Shown: positions 46,471 to 64,000, counted from the first letter of the stretch. The stretch is DNA of 64,000 nt from an uncultured Bacteriovoracaceae bacterium (GCA_964012805.1 CAXGUD010000010.1:1-64000); one strand, 5' to 3'. Numbers and translations are program-made. The notes: generated from the sequence alone by a model not told the origin.

Positions 46471-47625
46471 ATGAAAAATGACCAAAATTTATTAAGCTCA
46501 GCTGAATACAACCGTTATAGCCGCCACATGACTCTTCCAGAGGTTGGAGCTGAAGGTCAAAAAAAGCTAAAAAAAGCAAAGGTTCTAGTTGTTGGTGCCG
46601 GGGGTCTTGGTAGTCCAATTATACTTTATTTAGCAGCTGCAGGAATTGGTACTATAGGCATCATTGACTTTGATTTAGTAGATGAAACAAATCTTCAAAG
46701 ACAAGTTCTTTATAATATGGCCAATATTGGTACCTTAAAAACAGAAAGTGCGAAAGAGAAAATTCTTCAACTGAACCCTCACATCAAAGTAAACACCTAC
46801 AATGAGGGGCTTACGGCAGATAATGCACTTTCTATAATCAGCGAGTACGATGTAGTTTTGGATGGAACAGATAATTTCTCTTCACGTTATTTGGTTAATG
46901 ATGCCTGTGTACTTTTGGGAAAACCAAATGTCTATGGAAGTATCTATCGCTTTGACGGACAAATTTCGGTTTTTAACCATGAAGGTGGCCCTTGCTATAG
47001 ATGCCTTTACCCTTCTCCCCCACCACCAAACCTAATTCCCTCTTGTGCGGAAGGTGGTGTCCTTGGCATACTACCGGGCATTATAGGTACCCTACAAGTC
47101 AACGAAGCATTAAAAATTATTTTAGGAATTGGCCAGTCATTGAAAGGACGCTTTATTCTTTTTGATGCACTTAAAATGGAATTCAATGAAATGAAAGCAC
47201 AAAAAAACCCTCAGTGCTCTATTTGTGGAGAAAAACCAACAATAAAATCCCTTATGACAGAAACTCAATATAGTTGTGTAACTTTGGATTCAAAAAAAGA
47301 GGCAAGTCACCAAAAAATTTCGGTATTCAACTTAAAAGAACGCATGGATCGAAGAGAGAGTCCATTAATTATTGATGTAAGAGAAAGTTTTGAACTAGAA
47401 ATAGTTAGATTAGAGGGCTCTAAACACATTCCATTAAAAGAACTTAATAATCAAATTTTAAATTACGACTCTAATAAAGAAATTATTCTTCTTTGTAAGT
47501 CAGGAATAAGGTCTTCAATTGCCTGTGAAGAACTCAAGAAAAACAACTTCAAAAATGTAAAAAGTGTAGACGGAGGAATTTTGGCTTGGGCCAAAGAAGT
47601 TGATACAAGTCTAATGACCTACTGA
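46471..47625 (+). CDS. moeB: MoeB/ThiF adenylyltransferase fused to rhodanese (MoeZ/MoeBR type)
   Basis: RYSRH, GAGGLG, NLQRQ, CYRCLY, SCAEGGVLG, rhodanese CKSGIRS. Confidence 0.92.
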   Translation: MKNDQNLLSSAEYNRYSRHMTLPEVGAEGQKKLKKAKVLVVGAGGLGSPIILYLAAAGIGTIGIIDFDLVDETNLQRQVLYNMANIGTLKTESAKEKILQLNPHIKVNTYNEGLTADNALSIISEYDVVLDGTDNFSSRYLVNDACVLLGKPNVYGSIYRFDGQISVFNHEGGPCYRCLYPSPPPPNLIPSCAEGGVLGILPGIIGTLQVNEALKIILGIGQSLKGRFILFDALKMEFNEMKAQKNPQCSICGEKPTIKSLMTETQYSCVTLDSKKEASHQKISVFNLKERMDRRESPLIIDVRESFELEIVRLEGSKHIPLKELNNQILNYDSNKEIILLCKSGIRSSIACEELKKNNFKNVKSVDGGILAWAKEVDTSLMTY

Positions 47626-50730: not shown

Positions 50731-51708
50731 TTAGTTAATAGGGTTATAGCACCTATAATAATGGCTACCAGAAGCATCCGTCCGACTAGGATAAGCTGTT
50801 TTACACTCATCAGTTGCTTTCCAGCACCTTGGGTGGAAATGACAACCTGCCGGAGGATTCATTGGAGAAGGAATATCACCTTCCAATAAAATTCTATCCG
50901 TCTTTCTGGATGGGTCGGCTACAGGAATCGCTGAAAAGAGGGCCTTTGTATAGGGATGCCTCGAATCTCCGTAAAGCTCTGAAGCTTCAGCTAATTCAAC
51001 CATATTCCCTAAATACATAACAGCAACTTTAGTAGAGATATATTCTACAACCTTAAGGTCGTGAGCAATAAACAAGTAAGTCAACCCGAGATCTTTTTGA
51101 AGGTCTGTTAAAAGGTTGATAACCTGTGCTTGGACAGAAACATCCAACGCAGAAACTGGCTCATCACATACGATAAAGTCAGGCTCTACAGCTAATGCTC
51201 TAGCTATACAGACACGTTGCCTTTGCCCCCCAGAAAACTCGTGAGGGTATTTATTGAGAGCATCTTTTGGTAGTTGAACCTGATCTAGAAGCTCATAAAG
51301 CCTCTTTTGACGCTCTTTTTTTCCTTCAAAAAGGTTATGGATTCGAAGTGGTTCAGAAAGAATTGAACCGATAGTCATCCTAGGATTCAATGAAGCATAA
51401 GGATCTTGAAAAATAATCTGAATTTTTCTCCTAAGTTCCCTCATTTCCTTAGGGCCATAGTTTAGAATATTTTGACCATTATAAAGGATCTCTCCAGAAG
51501 TAGGCTCAAGAAGGCGAAGAATACAACGACCTAAAGTTGTTTTCCCACAACCTGACTCTCCTACAAGACCAAGAGTCTCTCCCCTTTTAATTTTAAAGCT
51601 AACGTCGTTAACAGCTTTAACTGCTCCAACTTCGCGACCAAAAAGACCACCCTTTATTGGAAAACGCTTTGTAAGATTATTGACCTCTAATAAATATTCT
51701 GAACTCAT
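50731..51708 (-). CDS. oppF: Oligopeptide ABC transporter ATPase
   Basis: [29 protein letters not shown]-terminal Cys motif. Confidence 0.92.
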
Positions 51709-51726
51709 CTAAATTCCTCTTTTAAA

Positions 51727-52719
51727 TTAATGAGAAGGATTAAAACAACTCACCTTATGGTCTGCCTTATAATTACTAAGAACAGGAACACCTTTAGCTC
51801 CTCTACATTCATCAATCACTCGCGGGCATCGATCTTGAAAACTGCAACCCGAAGGCAATTCAAATAGAGAAGGAACCATGCCCTCAATAGTCCTAAGACG
51901 CGCTTTATGTTCATCTTGAGTTGAATCAAAGGATGGAATTGAGTCCATCAGTCCTATTGTGTAAGGGTGTTTTGGATCTTTAAAAAGCGTCTGAACATCA
52001 GCTCTTTCAACGATTCTGCCACAGTACATAACTGCTACATCATCGCAAGTCTCTGCAACAACTCCCAAGTCATGAGTGATAAAGATAATGCCCATGCCAA
52101 GCTCTTTTTGAAGCTTATTCATTAAATCAAGAATTTGGGCCTGGATTGTTACATCAAGGGCAGTCGTTGGTTCATCAGCAATTAAAATATCGGGCTCACA
52201 AGCAAGAGCAATTGCGATCATTACCCTTTGCCTCATCCCACCTGAAAGTTGATGAGGATACTCTTGAAACCTCTGCTCTGGCGAAGGGATCCCAACAAGC
52301 CTAAGCATATCAACTGCTTTGTCTGCCATTTCTGCTTTAGAAAGGTGAGACTGGTGAAGCTCTAAAACTTCGATAATCTGATTTCCCACAGTAAAAACAG
52401 GGTTGAGAGACGTCATAGGCTCCTGAAAAATCATAGCGATTTTATTTCCCCTAATATGCCTCATATCATCAACAGACTTATCAAGAAGATTTTCACCTCT
52501 ATAAAGAATTTCACCACCACTGACGTTACCAGTTGGCTTTTGAATAAGACCCATGACAGATAAAGCCGTCACAGACTTCCCAGAACCAGACTCTCCAACT
52601 ATTCCAAGAGTTTTTCCTTTATAAACCTCAAGGTTAACTCCATTAACAGCGGTAATTTTTCCTCTATCTGTTCTAAAATCAACTACTAAATCTTTAACTT
52701 CTAAAATTAACTCGGACAT
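51727..52719 (-). CDS. oppD: Oligopeptide ABC transporter ATPase
   Basis: [26 protein letters not shown]. Confidence 0.92.
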
Positions 52720-52746
52720 ACGAACCCTTTAGGTTTTAATCGTTAT

Positions 52747-53688
52747 TTATTTTCCTTTAAGTTTTGGATCCAGAGCATCCCTTAAAGCGTCTCCTAAAAT
52801 ATTAAAGGCCAAAACAATGACAAACATTGCAGCCGTTGCAGCTAATAATTGCCACCAAACACCTCTTGCCAGCTCTAGCTTGGCATCATCAATCATAATT
52901 CCCCAGCTAGGCCTATCCTGAACTCCAAGACCAAGATAAGACAAAATAACCTCACTCTTAATGGCCGTTTGGAAGGTCAAAGAAAAGTTAATAATCACGA
53001 GGTGAAAAACATTCGGTAAAATATGAAGGAAAAGTCTTCTCGAATGACTAGCACCTACGGAGTAAGCAGCATGAACATACTCTCTATTCTTATGCCTAAT
53101 AACATCCGCTCTAATTAAACGGCAGAGGGAAACCCAACTTGTTAAGCCAAGTGCCAAAAAAACTGCGATAATCCCTTTCCCTAATATAAAGGTGATCGCC
53201 ATTAAAAGCATGATTCCAGGAATTGAAGAAAAGGTTGTATAAAACCAAACAATTATTTCATCGACTTTTCCACCAAAGTACCCAGCAATGGCACCTAAAA
53301 TTACCCCAATAACCATTGTAACGAGCCCTGTCGCAAACCCAACGAGCATCGCGACCTCAGTCCCTTTAATCATCTTGTAAAAAACACTCCTTCCAAGAAT
53401 GTCCGTTCCAAAGAGATGCTCAATAGAAAAGGAGGCTGCCTGACCACTCATCCACTTTACCCAAAAGGGCGAATCATAGGCGGGACCAATCTCTTTCGCC
53501 CATTCGCCACCGATCAAACCAGTGAAGGATAGAAAAGCAATCAGTATATAAAGGACAACAATGGACAAAGAAGCCATTGCCATCCTATTTTTTTTCAAAG
53601 AATCAAATGCATGGGCCCAAAGAGATTTTGACTTTTTCTCTTTCTCTTTCGGCTTCGAGTTCATTGTAATCGTAATTGTATCTTCCAT
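52747..53688 (-). CDS. oppC: Oligopeptide ABC transporter permease
   Basis: FGTDILGR, EAA-like EYVHAAYSVGA, LGDALRDALDPK. Confidence 0.92.
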   Translation of the reverse strand: MEDTITITMNSKPKEKEKKSKSLWAHAFDSLKKNRMAMASLSIVVLYILIAFLSFTGLIGGEWAKEIGPAYDSPFWVKWMSGQAASFSIEHLFGTDILGRSVFYKMIKGTEVAMLVGFATGLVTMVIGVILGAIAGYFGGKVDEIIVWFYTTFSSIPGIMLLMAITFILGKGIIAVFLALGLTSWVSLCRLIRADVIRHKNREYVHAAYSVGASHSRRLFLHILPNVFHLVIINFSLTFQTAIKSEVILSYLGLGVQDRPSWGIMIDDAKLELARGVWWQLLAATAAMFVIVLAFNILGDALRDALDPKLKGK

Positions 53689-53712
53689 ATTTTAACCAAT
53701 CTCTCTCAACTT

Positions 53713-54654
53713 TTATGACAAGCGCACTCTTGGATCAACGACCGTATAAAGCACATCAGTGATTACACTAAAAACAATGTAGGCAATAGCACTTAAAATA
53801 GTCATGGCCTTAATCACGGGAAAGTCAGACGAGTTTATTGCACTCAAAGTCATCCCACCCAAACCTGGAATACTAAAGAAAGCCTCTAAAAGAAGCGCTC
53901 CCAAAATCAAAAAAGGTATCTGGATAACAATCTGAGTGATAATGGGAATCATAGCGTTTTTCAGTACATGCTTAAAAAGGATAACTCTTTCTCCAACACC
54001 CTTAGCTCTCGCTGTCCTGACATAGTCTTGGTAAATCTCATCCAGAATGACGGTTCTATAGAACCTTACATCTCCCCCCAAAGAGAGTATCAACCAAATA
54101 ATTAGGGGAAGCATAATGTATTCTATAAAATCGGGAAACCCACTCTCAAAACCTGCAATTGGAAACATCCCCCACTTATAAGCTAGAAGCCATTGGAAGA
54201 AGAGGATGTACGCAAGAGAAGAAATACTCATTAAAGCAACACAAAGAAAAACACCCGCTTTATCGATAAACTTTCCTCTAAAATAAGCTACAAGAAGAGA
54301 GATCGATAAAGCTACAGTTGATGCAATAACAAAGCTTGGTAGAGAGATCGTCAAAGAAGGGACCGCTCCCTGCTTTATCATGTAAAAGATCTCTTGCTTA
54401 GTAGACCAAGAACGGCCGAAATCAAAAGTAAAAGCGGATTTTACAATATCTAAATACTGTAAAATCCATGGTCTATCTAAACCTAGCTCTCGCCTCAGTT
54501 CAACAATTTGACTCGCAGTCGCGTGCTTCCCCAGTAAGAGAAGCGCGGGATCCGGAGAAAAAACATTAAATAGAATAAAGATGATGAAGCAGACCCCTAG
54601 AATCACAGGGATCACGTACAACAATCTTCTTAAAACATATGCCCAAAGGTTCAC
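53713..54654 (-). CDS. oppB: Oligopeptide ABC transporter permease
   Basis: LGLDRP, DYVRTARAKG, DPRVR; GTG start. Confidence 0.92.
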   Translation of the reverse strand: MNLWAYVLRRLLYVIPVILGVCFIIFILFNVFSPDPALLLLGKHATASQIVELRRELGLDRPWILQYLDIVKSAFTFDFGRSWSTKQEIFYMIKQGAVPSLTISLPSFVIASTVALSISLLVAYFRGKFIDKAGVFLCVALMSISSLAYILFFQWLLAYKWGMFPIAGFESGFPDFIEYIMLPLIIWLILSLGGDVRFYRTVILDEIYQDYVRTARAKGVGERVILFKHVLKNAMIPIITQIVIQIPFLILGALLLEAFFSIPGLGGMTLSAINSSDFPVIKAMTILSAIAYIVFSVITDVLYTVVDPRVRLS

Positions 54655-54666
54655 TTTCTTCTTCCT

Positions 54667-56442
54667 TTAAAGCTTTTCCAGCCCTTTAACTTTTTCTTGA
54701 AGGTTCACATCCCAATACTGAACATGACCATGATTAAAATCTGAAGGCACATAGTTTTTAATCCATGAATGCTTCACGACATAACTTTGTCTATGTACAC
54801 CATAAATCCAAGGAACTTCTTCAGCAGCCATCTTGTACATAGTTTCATACATAGAGGTTCTCTTTGGTGAGTCCTGAAGAATAGAAGCAACTTTAAACAA
54901 CTTATCAAATTCAGGGTTGCTGTAACCAGAACCGTTTGCACCTGGAGACCTGTTAGGTCCAAAAAGAAGTTGTAAAAAGTTTTCAGCATCTGGGTAGTCC
55001 GCACCCCAAGCGATTCCATAAAGCATCACTTGTCTCTTGGTAATTTTCTCTTGGAACTTTGGCCATGTGCTTGTTTGTAATTTTATTTTAAGGCCAATTT
55101 TTGCCATTTGCTTTTGGAAAAATTGTGCTTGCTGACGACTTACCGTGCTTGAAAGACTATCGTAAGTGATTTCAGGTAAGCCCTTTCCTTCAGGGTAACC
55201 AGCTTTTGCAAGCTCTTCTTTTGCCTTTTCAACATTTTGACCAATATAAGGGTTCTTATAGTCCTTAATATAGCCTGCAATTCCTGGAGGAATCACCGAG
55301 TGAGCTGGCAGCGCCGTATTGTTGTAAAAGAGCTTATTAGATTCTTGTACATTGTAAGCCAAAGACATAGCTCTTCTTAAATGAACATTTTTAAGAAGTT
55401 CATTATCATGATTGAAGGCAACATAAGTGACATCCAAAGAAGGAGAAATCATAAGGCCAATACCTTTTTTGGCCATATCATCAACTAAACCTTGAGACGG
55501 GGTAATAACAGAATCGAAGTTGTCTTTAGGTATACTCAAAAAGTCGATTCCACCTTTTAAGAATTTCAACCAACGAGGCTGAGGCTCGCTCATAATGTGA
55601 ACAGTCACTTTATCTATGATAGGAAGAGTCTTTCCTGCGTATTTCTCAATACCTTTTCCCTTAAACTCTGCGCTAACTTCGCTTGGAAATAGTTTTTTTC
55701 TAAACTTTGGGTTCCTCTTATAAACAATCTTTTTTGTTTGATTAAATTGAGGAAGAATAAAAGGACCTGTACCAACTGGGTGGTTAAGGAACTCTTTTTT
55801 GTAATGCTTAACAACTTCTTCAGGCACAACAAAAGTAAAAGGCATTGCGAGAGCATAAAGGAACTGAGGAAAACTCTTGGATAGCTTAAACTTCAAAGTA
55901 TACTTATCGATAGCTTGAAGACCTTCGATTTTTTCAGAGTAGTCTACTTCCTTCTTATCAGTATACTTTTTTCTCCACTCATTAAGACCTGCAATTTTAC
56001 CGTCTAAAAGCCACCAGCCCAAAGACTGTAACTTAGGATCAGCTAGCCTCTTAATAGAATAGACAAAATCCTTGGCTTCGAGCTCTCTTCCTTTGCCTTC
56101 AGAAAAAGCCTTATCATCATGGAAGAAAATACCTTTTTTAATTTTAAAGGTATAAGTTAACCCATCTTCTGATACGCTTGGAAGCTTCTCAGCAAGATTA
56201 GGAACTAGTGTGTAAGGTCTTCTAAATGGGTGATACTCTAAAAGCCCTTCATAAACTCTAGCAATTTCACCACTAGAATAGGCATCGTTTGCGTAAATTG
56301 GATCCATTCCTTTTACGTCAGCACCTATAACTAAGTTTAGGGCCCTTTCATTAAGATCAACTTTCTTTTTAAAACAACCTGTAGAACTTAACAAAACTCC
56401 TAAAAGCACAAGCCAAGTTCTTATTCCATTTGATAATTTCAT
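54667..56442 (-). CDS. oppA: Peptide ABC transporter substrate-binding lipoprotein (SBP family 5)
   Basis: Lipobox STG-C, YEGLL, PVGTGPF, WGADYPDAENFL. Confidence 0.9.
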   Translation of the reverse strand: MKLSNGIRTWLVLLGVLLSSTGCFKKKVDLNERALNLVIGADVKGMDPIYANDAYSSGEIARVYEGLLEYHPFRRPYTLVPNLAEKLPSVSEDGLTYTFKIKKGIFFHDDKAFSEGKGRELEAKDFVYSIKRLADPKLQSLGWWLLDGKIAGLNEWRKKYTDKKEVDYSEKIEGLQAIDKYTLKFKLSKSFPQFLYALAMPFTFVVPEEVVKHYKKEFLNHPVGTGPFILPQFNQTKKIVYKRNPKFRKKLFPSEVSAEFKGKGIEKYAGKTLPIIDKVTVHIMSEPQPRWLKFLKGGIDFLSIPKDNFDSVITPSQGLVDDMAKKGIGLMISPSLDVTYVAFNHDNELLKNVHLRRAMSLAYNVQESNKLFYNNTALPAHSVIPPGIAGYIKDYKNPYIGQNVEKAKEELAKAGYPEGKGLPEITYDSLSSTVSRQQAQFFQKQMAKIGLKIKLQTSTWPKFQEKITKRQVMLYGIAWGADYPDAENFLQLLFGPNRSPGANGSGYSNPEFDKLFKVASILQDSPKRTSMYETMYKMAAEEVPWIYGVHRQSYVVKHSWIKNYVPSDFNHGHVQYWDVNLQEKVKGLEKL

Positions 56443-57345: not shown

Positions 57346-59220
57346 TTAATTTGAAGCTGGAATTCTTTTGGGCCCCACCACATTTCTTCTATCCTGCAAG
57401 TTTTTTATCAAACCTGCAACCTCTCTTCTCTCTTCATCAGTCTTGCTCGCTTTCATGGCTTCACGATAAAACTTTAGGGCCAAAGCATAATTTCTTTTCT
57501 TTAAATAAATAGTAGCTAAATGCTTAGCAATAACAAAATCTGATTTTACAAGATCCCAAGCCTTTTTGATTTCTTTCAATGCTTTATTTATTTTTCCTGT
57601 TTTGTAGTAAAACCAACCTAAAGAATCTCTGATATAGCCATCGTTTGGCCTTAAACGAACAGCCTTTTTAATATAAATAAAAGCTTGTGGTAAATTCTCA
57701 TTTTTTTCTAACATTGAGTAACCCAGAAAATTTAAGGCATGAGGATTTTCTGGATTTTTATCTAGTATCATTTCAATAATTTCTCTCGCCTTCTTATAAT
57801 TTTTATTTTTTTCATAGAGGGAAGCCAAATAATATTCATGATTTTCACCAAAACCTTCTTCACTCTTAAGAGAAGACAAAGCCTCTATTGCCTTTTTATA
57901 GTCCCTGATTGTTTCATAAAAGCTCGCTATTATTGAACCAAGTTCCAATTTCAAAAATTGGAACTCTTTTGACTTGTCTCGAGTATAGAGTATGAACTTT
58001 TTTACAATTTCATGATCTATATCCTTTTGCCCAAAATGAACTGCTTTCTCCATCAATATGTTAGAAATTTGAACAATTGATTCTTTGAAATAGATGTTGT
58101 TTTTTTTGATCTTTTCAAAATAGGATATGGCCTTATCATAATCTTTTGTTTTCTTATGCAGAACACCCAAATAAAACAAAACTTTTGCTGAACTTGGAAC
58201 TTCCTGAAGAAGCTCTCTAAAGATGCTTTTTGATTCATCATATCTTTTTACATCTATGTAAAATAAACCTAGCCTAAGTTTTAAATTAAGATCTGTTGGA
58301 TCTATTCTAGTCAAAGTCTCAACATAAGGTATTGCTTCTTTTTTATTGTTTAACTTTAAAAGAACATTAACAATCTTCCTCAGAACGGGATAGGCAGCTG
58401 GGTCACGCTCTAGATATTTCTTATAAGCTAAATAGGCTTCTTTTGACTTCTTATCAGTCTCTAAAACTTTTCCCAATTCTATAACAGCAGGATAGTATCT
58501 AGGGTTTAGTTTTAATGACCTCTTGAAAAGTTTTTTTGCCTTTTTCGAATGTCCCTCCTGAAGAGCAATCTTTCCCTCATAATAAAGGAATAGATCCTTT
58601 CGGTCCGTTTTATTCCCGCATCTTTTCAAAGTGACTTTAGCTTCTCTGAGTTTTTTGGAAATTTGATATGATTTCACGAGAAAAATACAGGCTTCGACCA
58701 TCTTTTCTCCACCATCACTTATTATCTCCTTATAGACCTTTTCTGACTTTTTAGCTTCACCAATAGAGCTATATATTCCTCCTAAAATAAGGCCAATATT
58801 TGAATAATTTCCATGGGATTTGTAAAGCTTCTCTAACTCCTCTTTAGCTTCTCCGTATCTACCAACTTTAATCAATTCAATGGCAAACCTTTTTTTTAAA
58901 TAGGGCTCATTAGGAGTAAGTTTTAACAGGGCATTAAAGTACAATATTGAAGTTTTATAATCTGACCTAAAAGAAGCATCTGATGCTTTAAGAAAAAGTT
59001 CACCTGAAAGAAGTTTAACTTTTTCTTTTCCTTCTTTTTTTGCCTCTGCAACCCTCATATCCAAAGCTGCCACCAAGTCTAACTCTGATTGAGTCTTTTT
59101 TACTGAACTCTTTGACACTTCTGCTTTAGTTGAAGCAGATTTCTTTTGTTTCTGCATAGACTTCTGTGGAGTCGAGCAGGAGGCGAGAACCAAAAGAAGA
59201 AAGAGGGCTATATTTTTCAT
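57346..59220 (-). CDS. TPR-repeat lipoprotein (PA4667/LbcA-like)
   Basis: Lipobox LAS-C, many TPRs, ALNFLGYSM and YIRDSLGWFYYK. Confidence 0.85.
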   Translation of the reverse strand: MKNIALFLLLVLASCSTPQKSMQKQKKSASTKAEVSKSSVKKTQSELDLVAALDMRVAEAKKEGKEKVKLLSGELFLKASDASFRSDYKTSILYFNALLKLTPNEPYLKKRFAIELIKVGRYGEAKEELEKLYKSHGNYSNIGLILGGIYSSIGEAKKSEKVYKEIISDGGEKMVEACIFLVKSYQISKKLREAKVTLKRCGNKTDRKDLFLYYEGKIALQEGHSKKAKKLFKRSLKLNPRYYPAVIELGKVLETDKKSKEAYLAYKKYLERDPAAYPVLRKIVNVLLKLNNKKEAIPYVETLTRIDPTDLNLKLRLGLFYIDVKRYDESKSIFRELLQEVPSSAKVLFYLGVLHKKTKDYDKAISYFEKIKKNNIYFKESIVQISNILMEKAVHFGQKDIDHEIVKKFILYTRDKSKEFQFLKLELGSIIASFYETIRDYKKAIEALSSLKSEEGFGENHEYYLASLYEKNKNYKKAREIIEMILDKNPENPHALNFLGYSMLEKNENLPQAFIYIKKAVRLRPNDGYIRDSLGWFYYKTGKINKALKEIKKAWDLVKSDFVIAKHLATIYLKKRNYALALKFYREAMKASKTDEERREVAGLIKNLQDRRNVVGPKRIPASN

Positions 59221-59272
59221 AAATTAGGGCCCAAAAGTCCTGGGAGACCTATTTTTCCCAGGCTGCTCTCTT

Positions 59273-59299
59273 TTATCGGTCAAAACCTATTTTTTTTTA
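59273..59299 (-). promoter_or_regulatory. sigma28/FliA-type promoter of the TPR operon
   Basis: Minus strand TAAA-N15-ACCGATAA; one mismatch to consensus. Confidence 0.72.
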
Positions 59300-59434
59300 A
59301 TCATTAACGATCTGTAATCACAGGAATCCTTTGTTTTTTAAATAAATTTTATTTTTAATAAAAGACTTAAAAACTCTTTCAGGATTAACGCCATGAAATT
59401 AATGCACTTAATTATAGCTTTCCTTTAAAGATTG

Positions 59435-59464
59435 TTGACATGATTAGGCAAAACCTGTTATTGA
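59435..59464 (+). promoter_or_regulatory. sigma70 promoter upstream of the PhaR-N gene
   Basis: TTGACA-N18-TATTGA with extended -10 TG. Confidence 0.5.
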
Positions 59465-59660
59465 AGTCGAAGCAAAGCATTAATTTAATAGCATAAACTA
59501 AAAAAATGCTTAACATTTTTGGCTTTTTCAGGCTTTTAACCCTGCAATTGAGAAGTTTTTGGGTTACCTATGCTTACGAGGAAGAGTTTACGCTTGAAAT
59601 AGCTGATTTAATTTAAAACTTTATTAATTTATTACGACACTAGAAACAATGAGGGAAAAA

Positions 59661-60062
59661 ATGAGTGAAGTGAGGATTATTAAGAGATACCAAAACAGAA
59701 AGCTTTATGACACACACCAAAGCTGCTATGTGACTCTTGAAGAGATTGCCCAAATTATCCGTGAAGGTCACGAAATTCAGGTAATTGATAACAAAACTAA
59801 AAATGACATTACCTACATGACTCAAATCCAGCTTTTATTTGATCAAGAAAGAAAGTCAAGTAAACCAGGAAATGTAGACCTTCTAAAAAGAGTTATTAGA
59901 TGTACAGAAGGTACTTTTACAGGTTATATTAAAGGCTTAGAAGGCTATGAAGAAGTTGAGGTTTCTGGAGAAGCAGCTGAAGCTGTTACTCAAGAGTTTC
60001 AATCAATGATGGGAAATAGCGAAACGCAAAACTCTTCAGTAGAAACAAGCCCTCTAAACTAA
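59661..60062 (+). CDS. PhaR-type (PHB accumulation regulator N-terminal DNA-binding domain) protein
   Basis: RIIKRYQNRKLYDTHQSCYVTLEEI...VIDNKTKNDIT; acidic tail; GAGGG RBS before ATG 59661. Confidence 0.9.
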   Translation: MSEVRIIKRYQNRKLYDTHQSCYVTLEEIAQIIREGHEIQVIDNKTKNDITYMTQIQLLFDQERKSSKPGNVDLLKRVIRCTEGTFTGYIKGLEGYEEVEVSGEAAEAVTQEFQSMMGNSETQNSSVETSPLN

Positions 60063-60090
60063 ATATTCAACCACTAACTTGGGACCATGA

Positions 60091-60792
60091 ATGGTTAAGA
60101 GTTATCTTGAAAAAAGATGGTTTAATTTCTATAAAGCTCCAAAGGCACTTTCAATAAGTGTCCTCGGAGCTATTTTATCATTTAATTGCTTTTCACAAGC
60201 AACTATAAAACCAAACATCATTAATTTAACATCTCAAAAGACGTCTAGATCGGTTTCAAAAGACATACCTGAAACAAACTCTAGAGTATCTGCAAAAGAT
60301 TTAAAAAGGCACTCTATAGGTGTTGGAATAGGTCAAACATTTTTGAGTAGTGAATTAGGGCAAAATGGTGACGACAGCATAACCCTTGATCTCTATTATG
60401 ATTACAGCGCTAGCTACTCTTTTGATCTTATTATTAACCTTCATCATTCCTCTCATCGAATCATAAAAAGGGAGGCAACGATTACAGGCTTGGCAGTGGG
60501 CGTAAAAGGAAGGCTATTCCAGTTTGATGCTTTTTCCCCCTTTCTTCTTGGTGGTCTCGGCTTCTATGCTCCAACTGTAACAAGACTCAAAAATAATGTA
60601 CTTGAAAAAACCCCCTTCTCTATTGCCTTTGGTAGCCATTTTGGAGCAGGAGGGGAATTAAAACTTAATGAGCAATTCAAAATAGCAGGGCTTATTCATT
60701 TTCATAACCCATTTGACATAAAGCAAGATTTGGACAAAGAACTTGAAGGCTCTTATTATAAGCTTCTATTAAACACCCACTACACGTTTTAA
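60091..60792 (+). CDS. Outer-membrane beta-barrel protein (8-strand type)
   Basis: Signal peptide, amphipathic strands (SPFLLGGLGFY, FGSHFGAGGELKL), terminal HYTF. Confidence 0.75.
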   Translation: MVKSYLEKRWFNFYKAPKALSISVLGAILSFNCFSQATIKPNIINLTSQKTSRSVSKDIPETNSRVSAKDLKRHSIGVGIGQTFLSSELGQNGDDSITLDLYYDYSASYSFDLIINLHHSSHRIIKREATITGLAVGVKGRLFQFDAFSPFLLGGLGFYAPTVTRLKNNVLEKTPFSIAFGSHFGAGGELKLNEQFKIAGLIHFHNPFDIKQDLDKELEGSYYKLLLNTHYTF

Positions 60793-60794
60793 AA

Positions 60795-61595
60795 TTGTTT
60801 CCAAAATATAAAAGACTTTATTTTTTTACTGGTAAAGGAGGTGTTGGCAAAACATCCTTTGCACTCGCCCTTACGAAATTTTTGCAAAAAGAGGGAGTAA
60901 ATGTAGCCTATTTTAACTTTGATCAAACTCAACCTAAAAAGTTAATTTCTCTCCTTAAAGTTCCAACAATAAACCAAACAACAGAAGAAAGTGCCGCAAT
61001 CTATATCCAAAACAAGCTTGGCTCTAAAACAATTGCGAACTGGATTCTTAAAACCACTTTTTTTAAGTCTCTTTTAAATATAACCCCTTCCATTGGCTAC
61101 ATGATCAGCCTAGGGCACATCATAAACCGCCTAGAGGAGGACCCTTCCCTAACAATTGTCATAGATGCCCCTGCTTCTGGTCACACTTTATCCCTCTTTA
61201 ATTCAACCCATAATTTCAGAGAAATGTTCAAAGTCGGCCCACTTGTCGAAGATATTCATAAAATGCATAACTTTCTTGAGAAAAGTGAAAACATAAAAGT
61301 CTGCATTCTTTGCCTTCCTAACATAATGAATGTCCAAGAGGCTCTAGAGTTAAAAAAAGGCTTAAGTAGTTTAAAACTCTTTGAAGGAAACCTTATCCTT
61401 AACGAGCTTCTTGCAGGACTCAACCATAATGAACTAGAAGCTTTACCCAACTTTTTAAGGGAAAAAATAAGTATTGAGCAAAACTTAAAAAAGCAATATG
61501 AAAAAGATTTTACTGAAGTTGTGCCTTTTCTAAGCAGTACTGATTATGCTGATATTGTCACTTCATTAATAAACATGATGAGGACTATAGCTTGA
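60795..61595 (+). CDS. ArsA/Get3-family ATPase, BagA (Rv3679)-like subunit
   Basis: TGKGGVGKTS, DAPASGH; lacks the switch-I DPA motif. Confidence 0.85.
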   Translation: MFPKYKRLYFFTGKGGVGKTSFALALTKFLQKEGVNVAYFNFDQTQPKKLISLLKVPTINQTTEESAAIYIQNKLGSKTIANWILKTTFFKSLLNITPSIGYMISLGHIINRLEEDPSLTIVIDAPASGHTLSLFNSTHNFREMFKVGPLVEDIHKMHNFLEKSENIKVCILCLPNIMNVQEALELKKGLSSLKLFEGNLILNELLAGLNHNELEALPNFLREKISIEQNLKKQYEKDFTEVVPFLSSTDYADIVTSLINMMRTIA

Positions 61596-62683
61596 TTAAA
61601 CAAACCATTTTAATAAAACAGCTAGAAATTTTCTGTGGAACAGGTGGAGTTGGAAAAACGACCCTAGCGACATCAAGAGCACTTTTCCTTGGATCAAAAG
61701 GTAAAAAGGTGCTTCTTATCACTATCGACCCTGCAAAAAGATTAAAACAAATCCTAAATATTAAAGACCAAAATGCGGGAAAAGTTGAAAATATTTCTTC
61801 AAACTTGTTTACAGGTTTTGAGGAAAATAATTTTTCTATTTCTGCCCTCCTCATGTCACCAAAGGAAACACTGCGCAAAATCCTAAAAGCAGATACTATT
61901 GATAATAACGTATTAAACATACTAACTAGACCCCACGGTGGAATGAATGAAATCCTCTCACTTATAGAGGTTCAGTTTCATATTGAAAGTGGAAAATACG
62001 ATACGATTATTCTAGATACGCCACCAGGAAAACACTTTATAGACTTCCTCCAATCATCCAGAAAAATTTCAGATTTTTTTGACAGTAGTTTTGTTGAGAT
62101 CTTTAAATTTTTAGGAAAGCCAATTATATATCCAAAAGGGCCTGCTCAGAAGCCTACAAAGAAGCTGTTAGGCAAGCTTATTTCAACTGGAATCAAAAAA
62201 CTCTTAAAATATCTTGATCAAGTAACTGGTGAAAAATTTGTCCAAGACTTTATTGAAGCAGTTTCAATTCTCTACCAAAACAAAGCACCCTTTCTGGAGG
62301 CTTTAGAGCTCGAAAAACAGCTTCGCACTTTTGAGTTTTGTAACTGGTTTCTTGTGACCTCCGTTGAACAATCGAAATTACAAGAAGCTGCAGAGTTTCA
62401 ATCTCACACTGAGACATTTCACAAATCCAATTTCTTCTTCCTAATTAATAAATCTCTTGAAAATCATATCAAAGAATGGGATATCCCTTCTAAAGGCTCA
62501 TCTCTTGGAAAAGAATCTAGAGAGAAGCTTGCTTCTTTAAAAGAATCTATGATTTCTAAAGAGGAGAAAACGATCAAGTTTGCTAAGACCCAATTTAGCC
62601 AGTTTATTATCTTCCCAGAAATTATTGATGCAAACCCTGTAAAGCATGTTGGGGATCTCTCTAAAACTTGGAAAAATAATTAA
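61592..62683 (+). CDS. ArsA/Get3-family ATPase, BagB (Rv3680)-like subunit
   Basis: CGTGGVGKTT, ITIDPAKRL, LDTPP; TTGA overlap with the previous stop codon. Confidence 0.85.
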   Translation: MIKQTILIKQLEIFCGTGGVGKTTLATSRALFLGSKGKKVLLITIDPAKRLKQILNIKDQNAGKVENISSNLFTGFEENNFSISALLMSPKETLRKILKADTIDNNVLNILTRPHGGMNEILSLIEVQFHIESGKYDTIILDTPPGKHFIDFLQSSRKISDFFDSSFVEIFKFLGKPIIYPKGPAQKPTKKLLGKLISTGIKKLLKYLDQVTGEKFVQDFIEAVSILYQNKAPFLEALELEKQLRTFEFCNWFLVTSVEQSKLQEAAEFQSHTETFHKSNFFFLINKSLENHIKEWDIPSKGSSLGKESREKLASLKESMISKEEKTIKFAKTQFSQFIIFPEIIDANPVKHVGDLSKTWKNN

Positions 62684-62715
62684 ACCCCTCCTAAACCAAA
62701 AAATTGGAGAAAAAC

Positions 62716-64000
62716 ATGAAAGGCGCCAAATTAAACATTCTTGATGCGATAGGCAACACTCCTATTGTAAAACTCAATAAAGTCGCAACTGGAGTTCAAT
62801 CTGAAATCTATGTAAAGTTAGATTTTCTCAACCCTGGCGGATCCATTAAAGATAGAATTGGTGCATACATTCTTGAAAAGGCAGTCAAAAATGGAGACCT
62901 AAAACCAGGTGGGACTGTCATTGAGGGAACCTCTGGTAATACTGGCGTTGGACTAGCTATGTATGCAGCAGTTCATGGCTACAAATGTGTTTTTGTTCTG
63001 GCAGATAAACAATCAAAAGAAAAGATTGATAATTTAAGGGCCTTCGGAGCAAAGGTTATAGTTTGCCCAACCAACGTGGAACCCGAAGACCCTAGATCAT
63101 ACTATAGCGTTTCAAAAAGGTTATCAGAAACAATTCCAAACTCTTATTACGTCAACCAGTACGAAAACCTATGGAACCGAGAAACACATTTTAAGACAAC
63201 AGGCCCAGAAATTTACAACCAGACAGAAGGAGACTTTGATGTCTTCATGGCCGGCGTTGGTACAGGGGGTACAATTTCTGGAATTGGTGCTTATTTAAAA
63301 ACAGTCATGCCAGAGGTAAAAATCATCGGTGTCGATTGTGAAGGTTCAATCGTTGCTCACTACGCTAAAACGGGTGAGATGTGCGAAGCTAAACCATACG
63401 TCTTAGAAGGCCTTGGAGAAGATTTCATACCAGGCAATTACAATTTTGATGTCATTGATGATTGGGAAGTCATTGGTGATAAGGAGAGCTTTTTAATGAC
63501 GAGAGACCTCTTAACACATGAGGGTATCTACGCTGGAGGAAGCTCTGGAGGAGCCGTAAGAGCTGCTATAAAGTATGCTGAAAAACTCGCAGAACCAAAA
63601 AAAATTCTAGTGCTTCTTCCCGATTCTGGTAACAGATATGCATCCAAAATTTTTAATGACGATTGGATGAGTGACAATGGCTATAAAGACTCTTCTTTTA
63701 ATGTAACAATTCAAGAAGTCCTAACAACTTTGAAAAAAGAGACGACACCTCTAATATCAATCAATGATACCTCGACTATTGGTGAAGCCATTAAGGTTAT
63801 GGATGAAAATGGTATTTCTCAACTCCCAGTATATGGCTCTGGCCATCTCGAAGGTATCGTTTCCGAAAGAAACTTATTGAAGCCTGTCTTTGATGGGGAG
63901 TTCAAGCTCAGCGACTCAATATCCTTAGCTTTTAAGTCTGACTTTAAAATCATAGACATAGGAGAACTTCTCTCCAACGTTGCTGATTCCTTACTCCAAG
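62716..64000 (+). CDS. Cysteine synthase / cystathionine beta-synthase with C-terminal CBS domains (partial; not in ORF track)
   Basis: GGAG RBS, ATG 62716; IGNTPIVKL, NPGGSIKDR, TSGNTG, GVGTGGT, then CBS-type TIGEAIKVMDENGISQLPV. Confidence 0.92.
   Translation, partial: MKGAKLNILDAIGNTPIVKLNKVATGVQSEIYVKLDFLNPGGSIKDRIGAYILEKAVKNGDLKPGGTVIEGTSGNTGVGLAMYAAVHGYKCVFVLADKQSKEKIDNLRAFGAKVIVCPTNVEPEDPRSYYSVSKRLSETIPNSYYVNQYENLWNRETHFKTTGPEIYNQTEGDFDVFMAGVGTGGTISGIGAYLKTVMPEVKIIGVDCEGSIVAHYAKTGEMCEAKPYVLEGLGEDFIPGNYNFDVIDDWEVIGDKESFLMTRDLLTHEGIYAGGSSGGAVRAAIKYAEKLAEPKKILVLLPDSGNRYASKIFNDDWMSDNGYKDSSFNVTIQEVLTTLKKETTPLISINDTSTIGEAIKVMDENGISQLPVYGSGHLEGIVSERNLLKPVFDGEFKLSDSISLAFKSDFKIIDIGELLSNVADSLLQ

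Follow-up and report, generated by a model that had tools for sequence, protein, structure and literature searches.

The stretch of DNA analysed here, referred to as the window, comprises the first 64,000 nucleotides (nt) of contig CAXGUD010000010.1 from an uncultured Bacteriovoracaceae bacterium (GCA_964012805.1), whose genome is 100% complete by marker genes. Towards its end the window carries a string of four genes, which encode a PhaR-N-type DNA-binding protein, a small outer-membrane barrel protein and two ATPases of the BagA/BagB kind (together BagAB), flanked by a divergent gene for a TPR-repeat lipoprotein and by two genes of reverse transsulfuration. The string recurs across the window's family and is made up of two units that are conserved apart elsewhere in the phylum; in our phylum sample, the joining of the PhaR-N/barrel unit to the BagAB unit is limited to the window's family. 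The features of the locus are as follows.

57346..59220, minus strand: TPR-repeat lipoprotein of 624 amino acids (aa) with the lipobox LASC, recognised from its open reading frame (ORF) and TPR families; divergent from the PhaR-N gene and a conserved partner in the first unit
59221..59660, no strand: AT-rich intergenic region of 440 nt between the divergent TPR and PhaR-N genes, presumed site of both promoters
59661..60062 (ORF 59649-60062), plus strand: PhaR-N-type DNA-binding protein, 133 aa (PF07879, E 5e-26)
60091..60792, plus strand: small outer-membrane barrel protein, 233 aa (weak PF13505 match, AlphaFold2 model, Foldseek)
60795..61595, plus strand: BagA-like Get3-fold ATPase subunit, 266 aa, TTG start (PF02374; best NCBIfam name NF053622)
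61592..62683, plus strand: BagB-like Get3-fold ATPase subunit, 363 aa, TTG start (PF02374; best NCBIfam name NF053621)
62704..64000, continuing to contig position 64089, plus strand: cystathionine beta-synthase-type gene with PALP and CBS domains (Pfam, TIGR01137)
Contig 64107-65267, past the window end: cystathionine gamma-lyase-type gene (Cys_Met_Meta_PP; PF01053, E 1e-154), 17 nt after the preceding gene

ORF calls on the window place all four genes between 59661 and 62683 on the plus strand, with spacings of 28 nt, 2 nt and a 4-nt overlap, in agreement with the original prediction, which had been made from the sequence of the window and had proposed a single system for trafficking or storing lipid. 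The BagB-like gene is followed after 20 nt by a gene starting with TTG at 62704, or after 32 nt if that gene starts with ATG at 62716. The latter distance had been given for a cysteine synthase gene; the distance stands, while the gene is of the cystathionine beta-synthase type (CBS-type), with PALP (E 7e-78) and CBS (E 2e-10) domains and a TIGR01137 score of 473.5 bits against a cut-off of 510 for a sequence ending at the window edge. The PhaR-N gene probably starts at 59661, where GAGGGA lies 5 nt upstream.

About 170 loci were compared in all, and the phylum sample consisted of 91 Bdellovibrionota genomes. The neighbourhood counts were drawn from related, non-independent genomes, and ORF calling was crude in high-GC loci, where absences are weak. 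The source names on the nearest homologues are Bacteriovoracaceae and Halobacteriovorax, and the DNA was found again in marine metagenomes.

Within the window's GTDB family, the string of a TPR gene on the minus strand and PhaR-N, barrel, BagA and BagB genes on the plus strand was found at 13 of 14 loci, the fourteenth running into the end of its contig. L171, a fifteenth locus, shares this gene order and, with the window, makes 15 of 15 assessable loci. The gap between the barrel and BagA genes is at most 13 nt at 11 of the 14 loci where both were seen, and a TPR homologue diverges from the PhaR-N gene at all 13 assessable loci of the family, as it also does at L048. Recurring in this way across the family, the order is more than chance, and the synteny check suggested with the original prediction came out in its favour at this level: the genes lie close together and keep their order in relatives.

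Two units and their partners

Outside the window's family the string comes apart. The barrel family (profile A3) occurs in 28 of the 91 genomes, comprising all 13 of the window's family and 15 others that belong to seven families (f3, f10, f13, f14, f17, f18 and f20). In each of these 15 a PhaR-N gene immediately precedes the barrel gene, and a gene like that for the 624-aa TPR lipoprotein diverges upstream of the pair at all 15 loci (L172-L186; for example L172:2887-7002). PhaR-N and the barrel, with the divergent TPR lipoprotein, are therefore an independently conserved unit: in the same seven families BagAB, where present, is no closer than 12 kb or lies on a different contig, and f3, which has the barrel in three of five genomes, is without BagB (0/5). 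With the two pairs conserved apart in this manner, the proposal that the four genes are one system does not hold. Hsp33 is encoded within one gene of the barrel at 9 of the 15 loci, abutting it on the same strand at four loci of f14, and GroEL is encoded near PhaR-N and the barrel at 5 of the 15. The window genome's own Hsp33 gene is on another contig.

BagB-like genes are present in 86 of the 91 genomes and missing from family f3 only. We compared 60 BagAB loci of the phylum, 15 from the window's family and 45 from other families, in a first set of 20 and a further set of 40 (39 of the latter from other families); BagA lies directly upstream of BagB at all 40 of the further set. A gene for the glutamate-cysteine ligase GshA, modelled here by the PF08886 family only, is found downstream of BagB on the same strand at 38 of the 60 loci (10/15 in the window's family and 28/45 in others; 25/40 in the further set). 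In other families it follows BagB directly, or comes after a conserved lipoprotein of ~350 aa and/or CysZ. This lipoprotein, which has a lipobox and belongs to no Pfam family, lies between BagB and CysZ or GshA at about ten loci of families f9, f12 and f16 (for example L133:4780-5904, L135:7007-8122 and L137:7048-8100) and is without a counterpart in the window, while CysZ stands between BagB and GshA, or directly after BagB, at nine loci. At some loci of other families a CBS-type gene comes after the ligase, and some of these have a gamma-lyase-type gene next. Within the window's family the CBS-type gene follows BagB directly at five loci and in the window; it comes after either BagB or GshA at 14 of the 15 other loci (L037 has GshA and no CBS match), and a gamma-lyase-type gene lies downstream at all 15, at most of them behind the CBS-type gene. 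BagAB is thus a second independent unit, whose steadiest partners in the phylum are the glutamate-cysteine ligase, CysZ and the reverse-transsulfuration genes, and not lipid genes. At one locus (L043, in a genome, G010, that is 66% complete) BagA, BagB, GshA and the CBS-type gene are each in pieces, of which frameshifts or poor assembly may be the cause.

The position of the ligase in 10 of the 15 relatives corresponds to window 62683-62704, the junction between BagB and the CBS-type gene. The control of the PF08886 search of the window's genome was silent, and the absence of GshA was re-tested with a relative's protein: GshA was absent from all four tested genomes in which the CBS-type gene abuts BagB, namely the window's and those of three relatives, and present in the control genome. 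From the ligase at the same slot in relatives, together with its genome-wide absence here, it follows that the window represents a derived state in which gshA has been lost.

To view BagAB in other phyla, one genome per species was scanned with a five-row BagB alignment, by which at least 526 relatives were confirmed among 600 matching stretches. Neighbourhoods were taken from the best 80 loci, mostly of Actinomycetota, along with Myxococcota, Desulfobacterota, Acidobacteriota and others, and adjacent BagA/BagB-like ORFs were present at 72 of these 80. PhaR-N lies within ~2.5 kb of BagAB at eight of the best 80, none of them actinobacterial: Myxococcus, Archangium (where a ParA-like gene stands between PhaR-N and BagA), and metagenome-assembled genomes (MAGs) of one Myxococcales, two Desulfobacteraceae, two "delta" and one Pseudomonadota-labelled organism. 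The order in Rhodococcus (L113) is metallo-beta-lactamase (MBL)-fold hydrolase, RidA-like protein, BagA, BagB and a class A penicillin-binding protein (PBP) with a PASTA domain; a PBP of this kind lies downstream of BagAB at four more actinobacterial loci (L097, L099, L118 and L122). We take the neighbours of bagAB in Mycobacterium tuberculosis to be the same three as in Rhodococcus.

Relatives of the encoded proteins

Both ATPases are matched by PF02374 (ArsA_ATPase), and their best NCBIfam names are BagA (NF053622, 49.6 bits against a cut-off of 400) and BagB (NF053621, 82.9 bits against 521). When compared with the PDB, a profile of 18 BagB-like sequences (A1) matched mycobacterial Rv3680 (6bs3_B) with E 4e-70 and 240 bits, ArsA and Get3 scoring far lower, and a profile of 24 BagA-like sequences (A5) matched Rv3679 (6bs3_A) with 151.9 bits over a single stretch. 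By summed score the top match of the latter profile is ArsA, with 177 bits spread over two halves (83 and 87 bits). The family models for ArsA (TIGR04291; 46.4 and 62 bits, cut-off 650) and Get3 (TIGR00345; 34.1 and 76 bits, cut-off 135) score well under their thresholds. The BagA-like protein has the deviant Walker A motif GKGGVGKT and an ArsA-type DxPxxGH signature, with a degenerate switch I, and the BagB-like protein has the P-loop G-T-GGVGKT, switch I as TIDPAKRL, Walker B as DTPP and a conserved helical insert. GKGGVGK is invariant among the 24 BagA-like sequences, while the 18 BagB-like sequences read G[TSP]GGVGK, the first (signature) lysine being gone; Rv3680 reads GaGGVGKT in the profile alignment and misses the same lysine. 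No column of either alignment holds an invariant cysteine. Since the BagAB proteins are closest and no cysteine is invariant, the pair appears to be neither an arsenic pump nor a zinc-linked Get3. Judged by sequence, the window's ATPases are of the BagAB type, distant orthologues of Rv3679 and Rv3680 that are not equivalogs by the NCBI rule. The original prediction had described a Get3-like ATPase pair, citing mycobacterial BagA/BagB, without the metal-binding cysteine cluster of ArsA, and the profile matches and the alignments bear out both points.

The likeness to mycobacterial BagA/BagB (PDB 6BS3-6BS5) goes beyond the structural matches and family names. There, as here, the genes are adjacent and overlapping with A ahead of B, A keeps GKGGxGK[ST] and B is without the first lysine, and neither subunit has metalloid- or zinc-binding cysteines. 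The differences are that mycobacterial BagA has 340 aa in the solved chain compared to 266 aa for the window's BagA-like protein, and that the pair here is flanked by PhaR-N, the barrel and reverse-transsulfuration genes, unlike the hydrolase, RidA-like protein and PBP of Rhodococcus. The pair resembles Get3/TRC40 in its SIMIBI-class fold, in having a helical insert and a deviant Walker A motif and, by analogy, in a dimeric working unit; unlike Get3/TRC40, it consists of two diverged subunits in place of a homodimer and has no CxxC zinc site. Get3 is also described as a stress holdase (PMC3613179; bioRxiv 10.1101/2024.07.10.602939). In M. tuberculosis, bagAB is reported to be implicated in protection against the toxicity of nitric oxide and of glycerol-derived products, and in M. 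smegmatis insertions in bagA/bagB are reported to confer citrate tolerance (PMC10597346).

The PhaR-N protein matches PF07879 (PHB_acc_N) with 91 bits (E 5e-26) over residues 10-69 of the 137-aa ORF, and TIGR01848 (PhaR) with 80.5 bits, under the cut-off of 109.45 and over model positions 1-84 only. The C-terminal PhaR domain PF05233 has no match in it at E <= 0.01. PHB_acc_N is followed by a short helical stretch and, past an acidic linker, by the C-terminal tail VETPxTLN; both the stretch and the tail are conserved. In its AlphaFold2 model residues 1-65 are confident and the tail is disordered; the fold gave no Foldseek match at E <= 1e-3 (the best, to the ExbD periplasmic domain, had E 0.1), and its best VIA-align Z of 4.6 is under a meaningful level. 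Across most genera of the window's family PhaR-N is 65-83% identical (alignment A6), compared to 40-52% for BagB. The family is present in 87 of the 91 phylum genomes, mostly in single copy, and in four of five genomes of f3; since it is near-universal and mostly single-copy, PhaR-N is probably a general regulator. The window's genome has a second PhaR-N paralogue of 127 aa (contig C8:104480-104659; L010:1333-1716, minus strand), directly downstream of a fused 3-deoxy-D-arabino-heptulosonate 7-phosphate (DAHP) synthase/chorismate mutase gene, with the helical EGTFTGYIKxLEG stretch in common, whereas other genomes of the family have one copy.

In the PhaR-PhaP circuit for polyhydroxyalkanoate (PHA), the regulator has the same N-terminal PHB_acc_N DNA-binding domain and is encoded directly upstream of a structural protein of a hydrophobic compartment, which is a phasin there and an outer-membrane barrel here (the phasin order is also seen in L078, described below). 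Unlike that regulator, the window's protein is without PF05233 and under the TIGR01848 cut-off, and neither PHA synthase nor phasin was found in its genome, and none of the 91 genomes sampled from the phylum has a PHA synthase match above the cut-off. The original prediction of a PhaR-type, storage-sensing regulator is therefore upheld for the PhaR-N protein, in a genome without a PHA synthase, and not for the sensing: because the granule-binding C-terminal domain is missing, "storage-sensing" is unfounded for this protein.

The barrel protein scores 23.6 bits against PF13505 (OMP_b-brl), under the cut-off of 28.7, and many of its close homologues carry a precomputed PF13505 match. Its parts are a hydrophobic N-terminal signal peptide, a periplasmic stretch KPNIxxLTSxxTAxKVxxxIP, an eight-stranded beta-barrel at ~72-233 and a C-terminal YTF; the AlphaFold2 model has a predicted local distance difference test score (pLDDT) > 93 over residues 72-233. 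The best Foldseek matches are the OmpA transmembrane domain (OmpA-TM), Ail, NspA, OmpX and OmpW (E 1.6e-8 to 1e-6; the first four with probability 1.00), with OmpW-like matches no better than OmpA and FadL matches poor, and a structural atlas search returned generic OMP_b-brl clusters only. The small barrels OmpA-TM, OmpX, Ail and NspA are alike in fold (E 1.6e-8 to 2e-7, template modelling (TM) score on target 0.65-0.78) and, as OmpA-type barrels, have a signal peptide and a C-terminal aromatic residue likewise. Unlike them, the window's protein, at 7-15% identity, has no periplasmic OmpA_C domain and has a conserved periplasmic N-terminal stretch and invariant polar residues that are unusually many for its size (H74, D95, N116, H118, S120, H122, K139, D146, H205, Q212 and K224), and its gene is always tied to a PhaR-N gene. 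The gene is single-copy in the window's genome and has 254 homologues, the named ones all from Bacteriovorax-like organisms. The model thus suggests a generic OmpA/OmpX-like fold, without a sign of the small channel for lipid that had been proposed. A PagL-like lipid A deacylase was also considered, for the H118-x-S120 motif; PagL (2erv_A) comes only 48th in Foldseek (E 6e-4, TM score on target 0.62).

Interpretation of the joined string

Our best explanation, in which our confidence is evenly balanced, is a family-specific, end-to-end joining of two older units, by which an operon headed by PhaR-N links a Get3-like chaperone ATPase with the supply of thiols. The ATPase would be an asymmetric BagA-BagB heterodimer like that of 6BS3, in which BagA would give its signature lysine to the nucleotide site of BagB, and a helical groove holding a hydrophobic or otherwise aggregation-prone client would open and close as ATP is bound and hydrolysed. 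With the chaperone and cysteine supply in one transcript, the cell could be protected from thiol-reactive or proteotoxic stress in predatory growth, and in other families Hsp33 may fill the same slot. The PhaR-N regulon would include the barrel and the TPR lipoprotein as its envelope members, and these would not be physical partners of the cytoplasmic ATPases. We place stress protection above lipid storage because the pair is linked to cysteine and gamma-glutamylcysteine genes, because Hsp33 and GroEL are encoded at the corresponding position in other families and because of the phenotypes reported for mycobacteria; on this pattern of genes, the BagAB pair likely serves the former.

The string is likely transcribed as one operon, since its genes are closely spaced and no convincing terminator was found in it. 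A terminator search of the plus strand returned four sites, compared to a shuffle mean of 3.5, among them 59120-59139, upstream of the string, and a weak five-pair stem at 61954-61970, inside BagB; none lies between BagB and the CBS-type gene. A promoter scan of 59221-59660 gave consensus-like sites at chance level only, an alignment of eight PhaR-N upstream regions showed no conserved block, and an Rfam search over 59000-64000 found nothing near any gathering score. Between 4 and 6 of 15 upstream regions contain the word GGGTTGACA, which resembles a -35 box. By analogy with PhaR-phaP, PhaR-N probably heads and controls the operon.

Several observations weigh against this explanation. The control by PhaR-N is an assumption, since no operator word was found: words of 10-16 nt in common between the window's TPR/PhaR-N intergenic region and 28 orthologous regions were at, or barely over, the shuffled maxima and AT-rich only. 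Three RNA-labelled marine libraries yielded seven short contigs (59483-59830, 60373-60785, 61524-61669 and 62979-63222), and a fourth run yielded none. The contigs cover only small pieces of PhaR-N, the barrel, the BagA/BagB junction and the CBS-type gene, DNA carry-over is possible for them, and they do not show co-transcription; one of them, a marine metatranscriptome contig at 59483-59633, lies 30-180 nt upstream of the PhaR-N start and would, if RNA and not such carry-over, belong to a long leader. PhaR-N and BagB are far apart in most families, lying within 10 kb of each other in 30 of 86 genomes (f1 13/13, f4 12/13, f7 4/6 and f15 1/3) and 0.2-3 Mb apart on four complete or long contigs; in three other Bdellovibrionota families PhaR-N stands beside BagAB without the barrel. 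Because neither subunit has a conserved cysteine, BagA and BagB cannot switch by redox state as Get3 and Hsp33 do. The cysteine and glutathione genes could adjoin BagAB because of nutritional co-regulation, or because their synteny was inherited within a single phylum, and GshA was not seen beside BagAB at the best 80 loci of other phyla with the PF08886-type model, other ligase families not being modelled. Lastly, lipid genes adjoin the same proteins at some loci. One Desulfobacteraceae MAG (L078:3583-6584) reads PhaR-N, phasin (PF05597, E 3e-21), BagA and BagB, with the phasin in the barrel's slot; the other (L129:4223-11732) has patatin, PhaR-N, BagA, BagB, wax ester synthase/diacylglycerol acyltransferase (WS/DGAT) and a second PhaR-N; a PlsC-type acyltransferase gene adjoins PhaR-N in a "delta" MAG; and a lipase/palmitoyl-thioesterase-like hydrolase is encoded directly ahead of BagA at 8 of 45 loci of other Bdellovibrionota families.

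A different role for the same ATPases is that BagAB is a Get3-like targeting factor that delivers envelope or membrane proteins encoded by its neighbours to the inner membrane, the barrel precursor here and the lipoprotein and CysZ in other families, with the thiol genes as passengers. We consider this unlikely, though with some weight on its side: the Get3 fold and the conserved helical insert are present in both subunits, and envelope genes recur in or beside BagAB operons, including the barrel, the ~350-aa lipoprotein, CysZ, LpoB and TPR proteins (L047) and the class A PBP of the five actinobacterial loci, and it is these that keep targeting as a rival. However, the barrel and the lipoproteins bear ordinary Sec/Lol-type signal peptides, the barrel goes with PhaR-N and not with BagAB, and no receptor candidate is conserved beside the pair. 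We know of no Get1/2-like receptor for BagAB, nor, to our knowledge, has published mycobacterial work named a tail-anchored client, which we count against targeting.

The chaperone and thiol-supply explanation can be carried further, at the cost of becoming quite improbable. In phyla without PHA (Bdellovibrionota and perhaps Myxococcota), PhaR-N could be a general sensor-regulator of exposed hydrophobic surfaces that heads a proteostasis and envelope regulon, with the outer-membrane barrel, the TPR lipoprotein, Hsp33/GroEL and BagAB as its interchangeable members, and BagAB could act on thiol-damaged or hydrophobic proteins as an ATP-driven holdase, tied to the supply of cysteine and gamma-glutamylcysteine. 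If true, this would give the missing function of the mycobacterial BagAB family, whose structure is solved and whose function is unexplained, and would explain the glycerol and nitric-oxide phenotype.

More doubtful still is a dedicated four-product system for trafficking or storing lipid, possibly prey-derived, or hydrophobic storage material, in which PhaR-N would sense a storage surface, BagAB would carry lipid or coat proteins and the barrel would be the outer-membrane channel. PhaR-N is indeed the DNA-binding domain of granule-sensing PhaR, and the phasin, patatin, WS/DGAT, PlsC-type and lipase-like neighbours listed above all fit such a system, as do the C-termini of PhaR-N in other phyla, which are coiled-coil or weakly phasin-like (29.5 bits, over the cut-off, at L066). 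Against it, profile searches of the window's genome found no PhaC_N (PF07167), class III PhaC (TIGR01836) or phasin (PF05597), with phaA and phaB not searched, and no WS/DGAT (PF03007), the control of this last search being silent; the absence of phaC, noted for the window, thus extends to a complete genome, and a weak match to a PHB-esterase family lies elsewhere in it. PhaC_N is over the cut-off in 0 of the 91 phylum genomes, compared to 87 with PhaR-N. In addition, the window's PhaR-N lacks the granule-binding half, the two units are separable, the barrel is narrow and of a generic type with poor FadL matches, the cytoplasmic ATPases have no membrane segment with which to reach an outer-membrane protein, and thiol genes are the most constant neighbours across the phylum (38/60 loci). 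Of the lipid handling originally proposed there remains a partial echo in the Desulfobacterota neighbours and the lipase-like gene, for which we keep it as a minority rival, while no storage-polymer or storage-lipid synthase was found in the genome. Among the literature matches listed, none pairs PhaR with Bdellovibrio or Myxococcus and none links PhaR or phasin to ArsA or Get3.

That the pair is a split ArsA energising arsenite or antimonite efflux is extremely improbable: PF02374 on both proteins, the DxPxxGH signature kept in BagA and the top summed PDB match of the BagA profile fit it, but neither subunit has an invariant cysteine or a metalloid cysteine triad, the two genes are separate, the TIGR04291 scores are far from the cut-off, Rv3679 and Rv3680 are the best single-domain structural relatives, the pair occurs in 86 of 91 phylum genomes with neighbours other than ars genes, and, as noted for the window, no ArsB (PF02040) was found, here genome-wide (arsC, arsR and ACR3 not searched).

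BagAB is known from mycobacteria, and its orthologues are near-universal in predatory Bdellovibrionota. Depending on the lineage, they are tied there to glutathione and cysteine genes, to the PhaR-N regulator and, via the PhaR-N unit, to Hsp33 and GroEL. These associations point to stress protection, and not to arsenic or fat storage, in a way that is testable in cultivable predators. Two further points arise from the comparison. The PhaR-N domain, usually taken as a PHA marker, belongs to the single-copy core genes of a phylum sample that lacks PHA synthase, which calls for caution in annotation; and what looks like a neat four-gene "system" may consist of two older units lying end to end.

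Genes farther upstream

An Opp/Dpp-type peptide ABC transporter is encoded upstream of the locus at window 50731-56442 on the minus strand, with a substrate-binding protein (SBP_bac_5), two permeases and two ATPases; the gene for the substrate-binding protein is syntenic in relatives. Farther upstream, at window 46471-47625 on the plus strand, lies a gene for a ThiF-rhodanese (MoeZ-like) sulfur-carrier activating enzyme.

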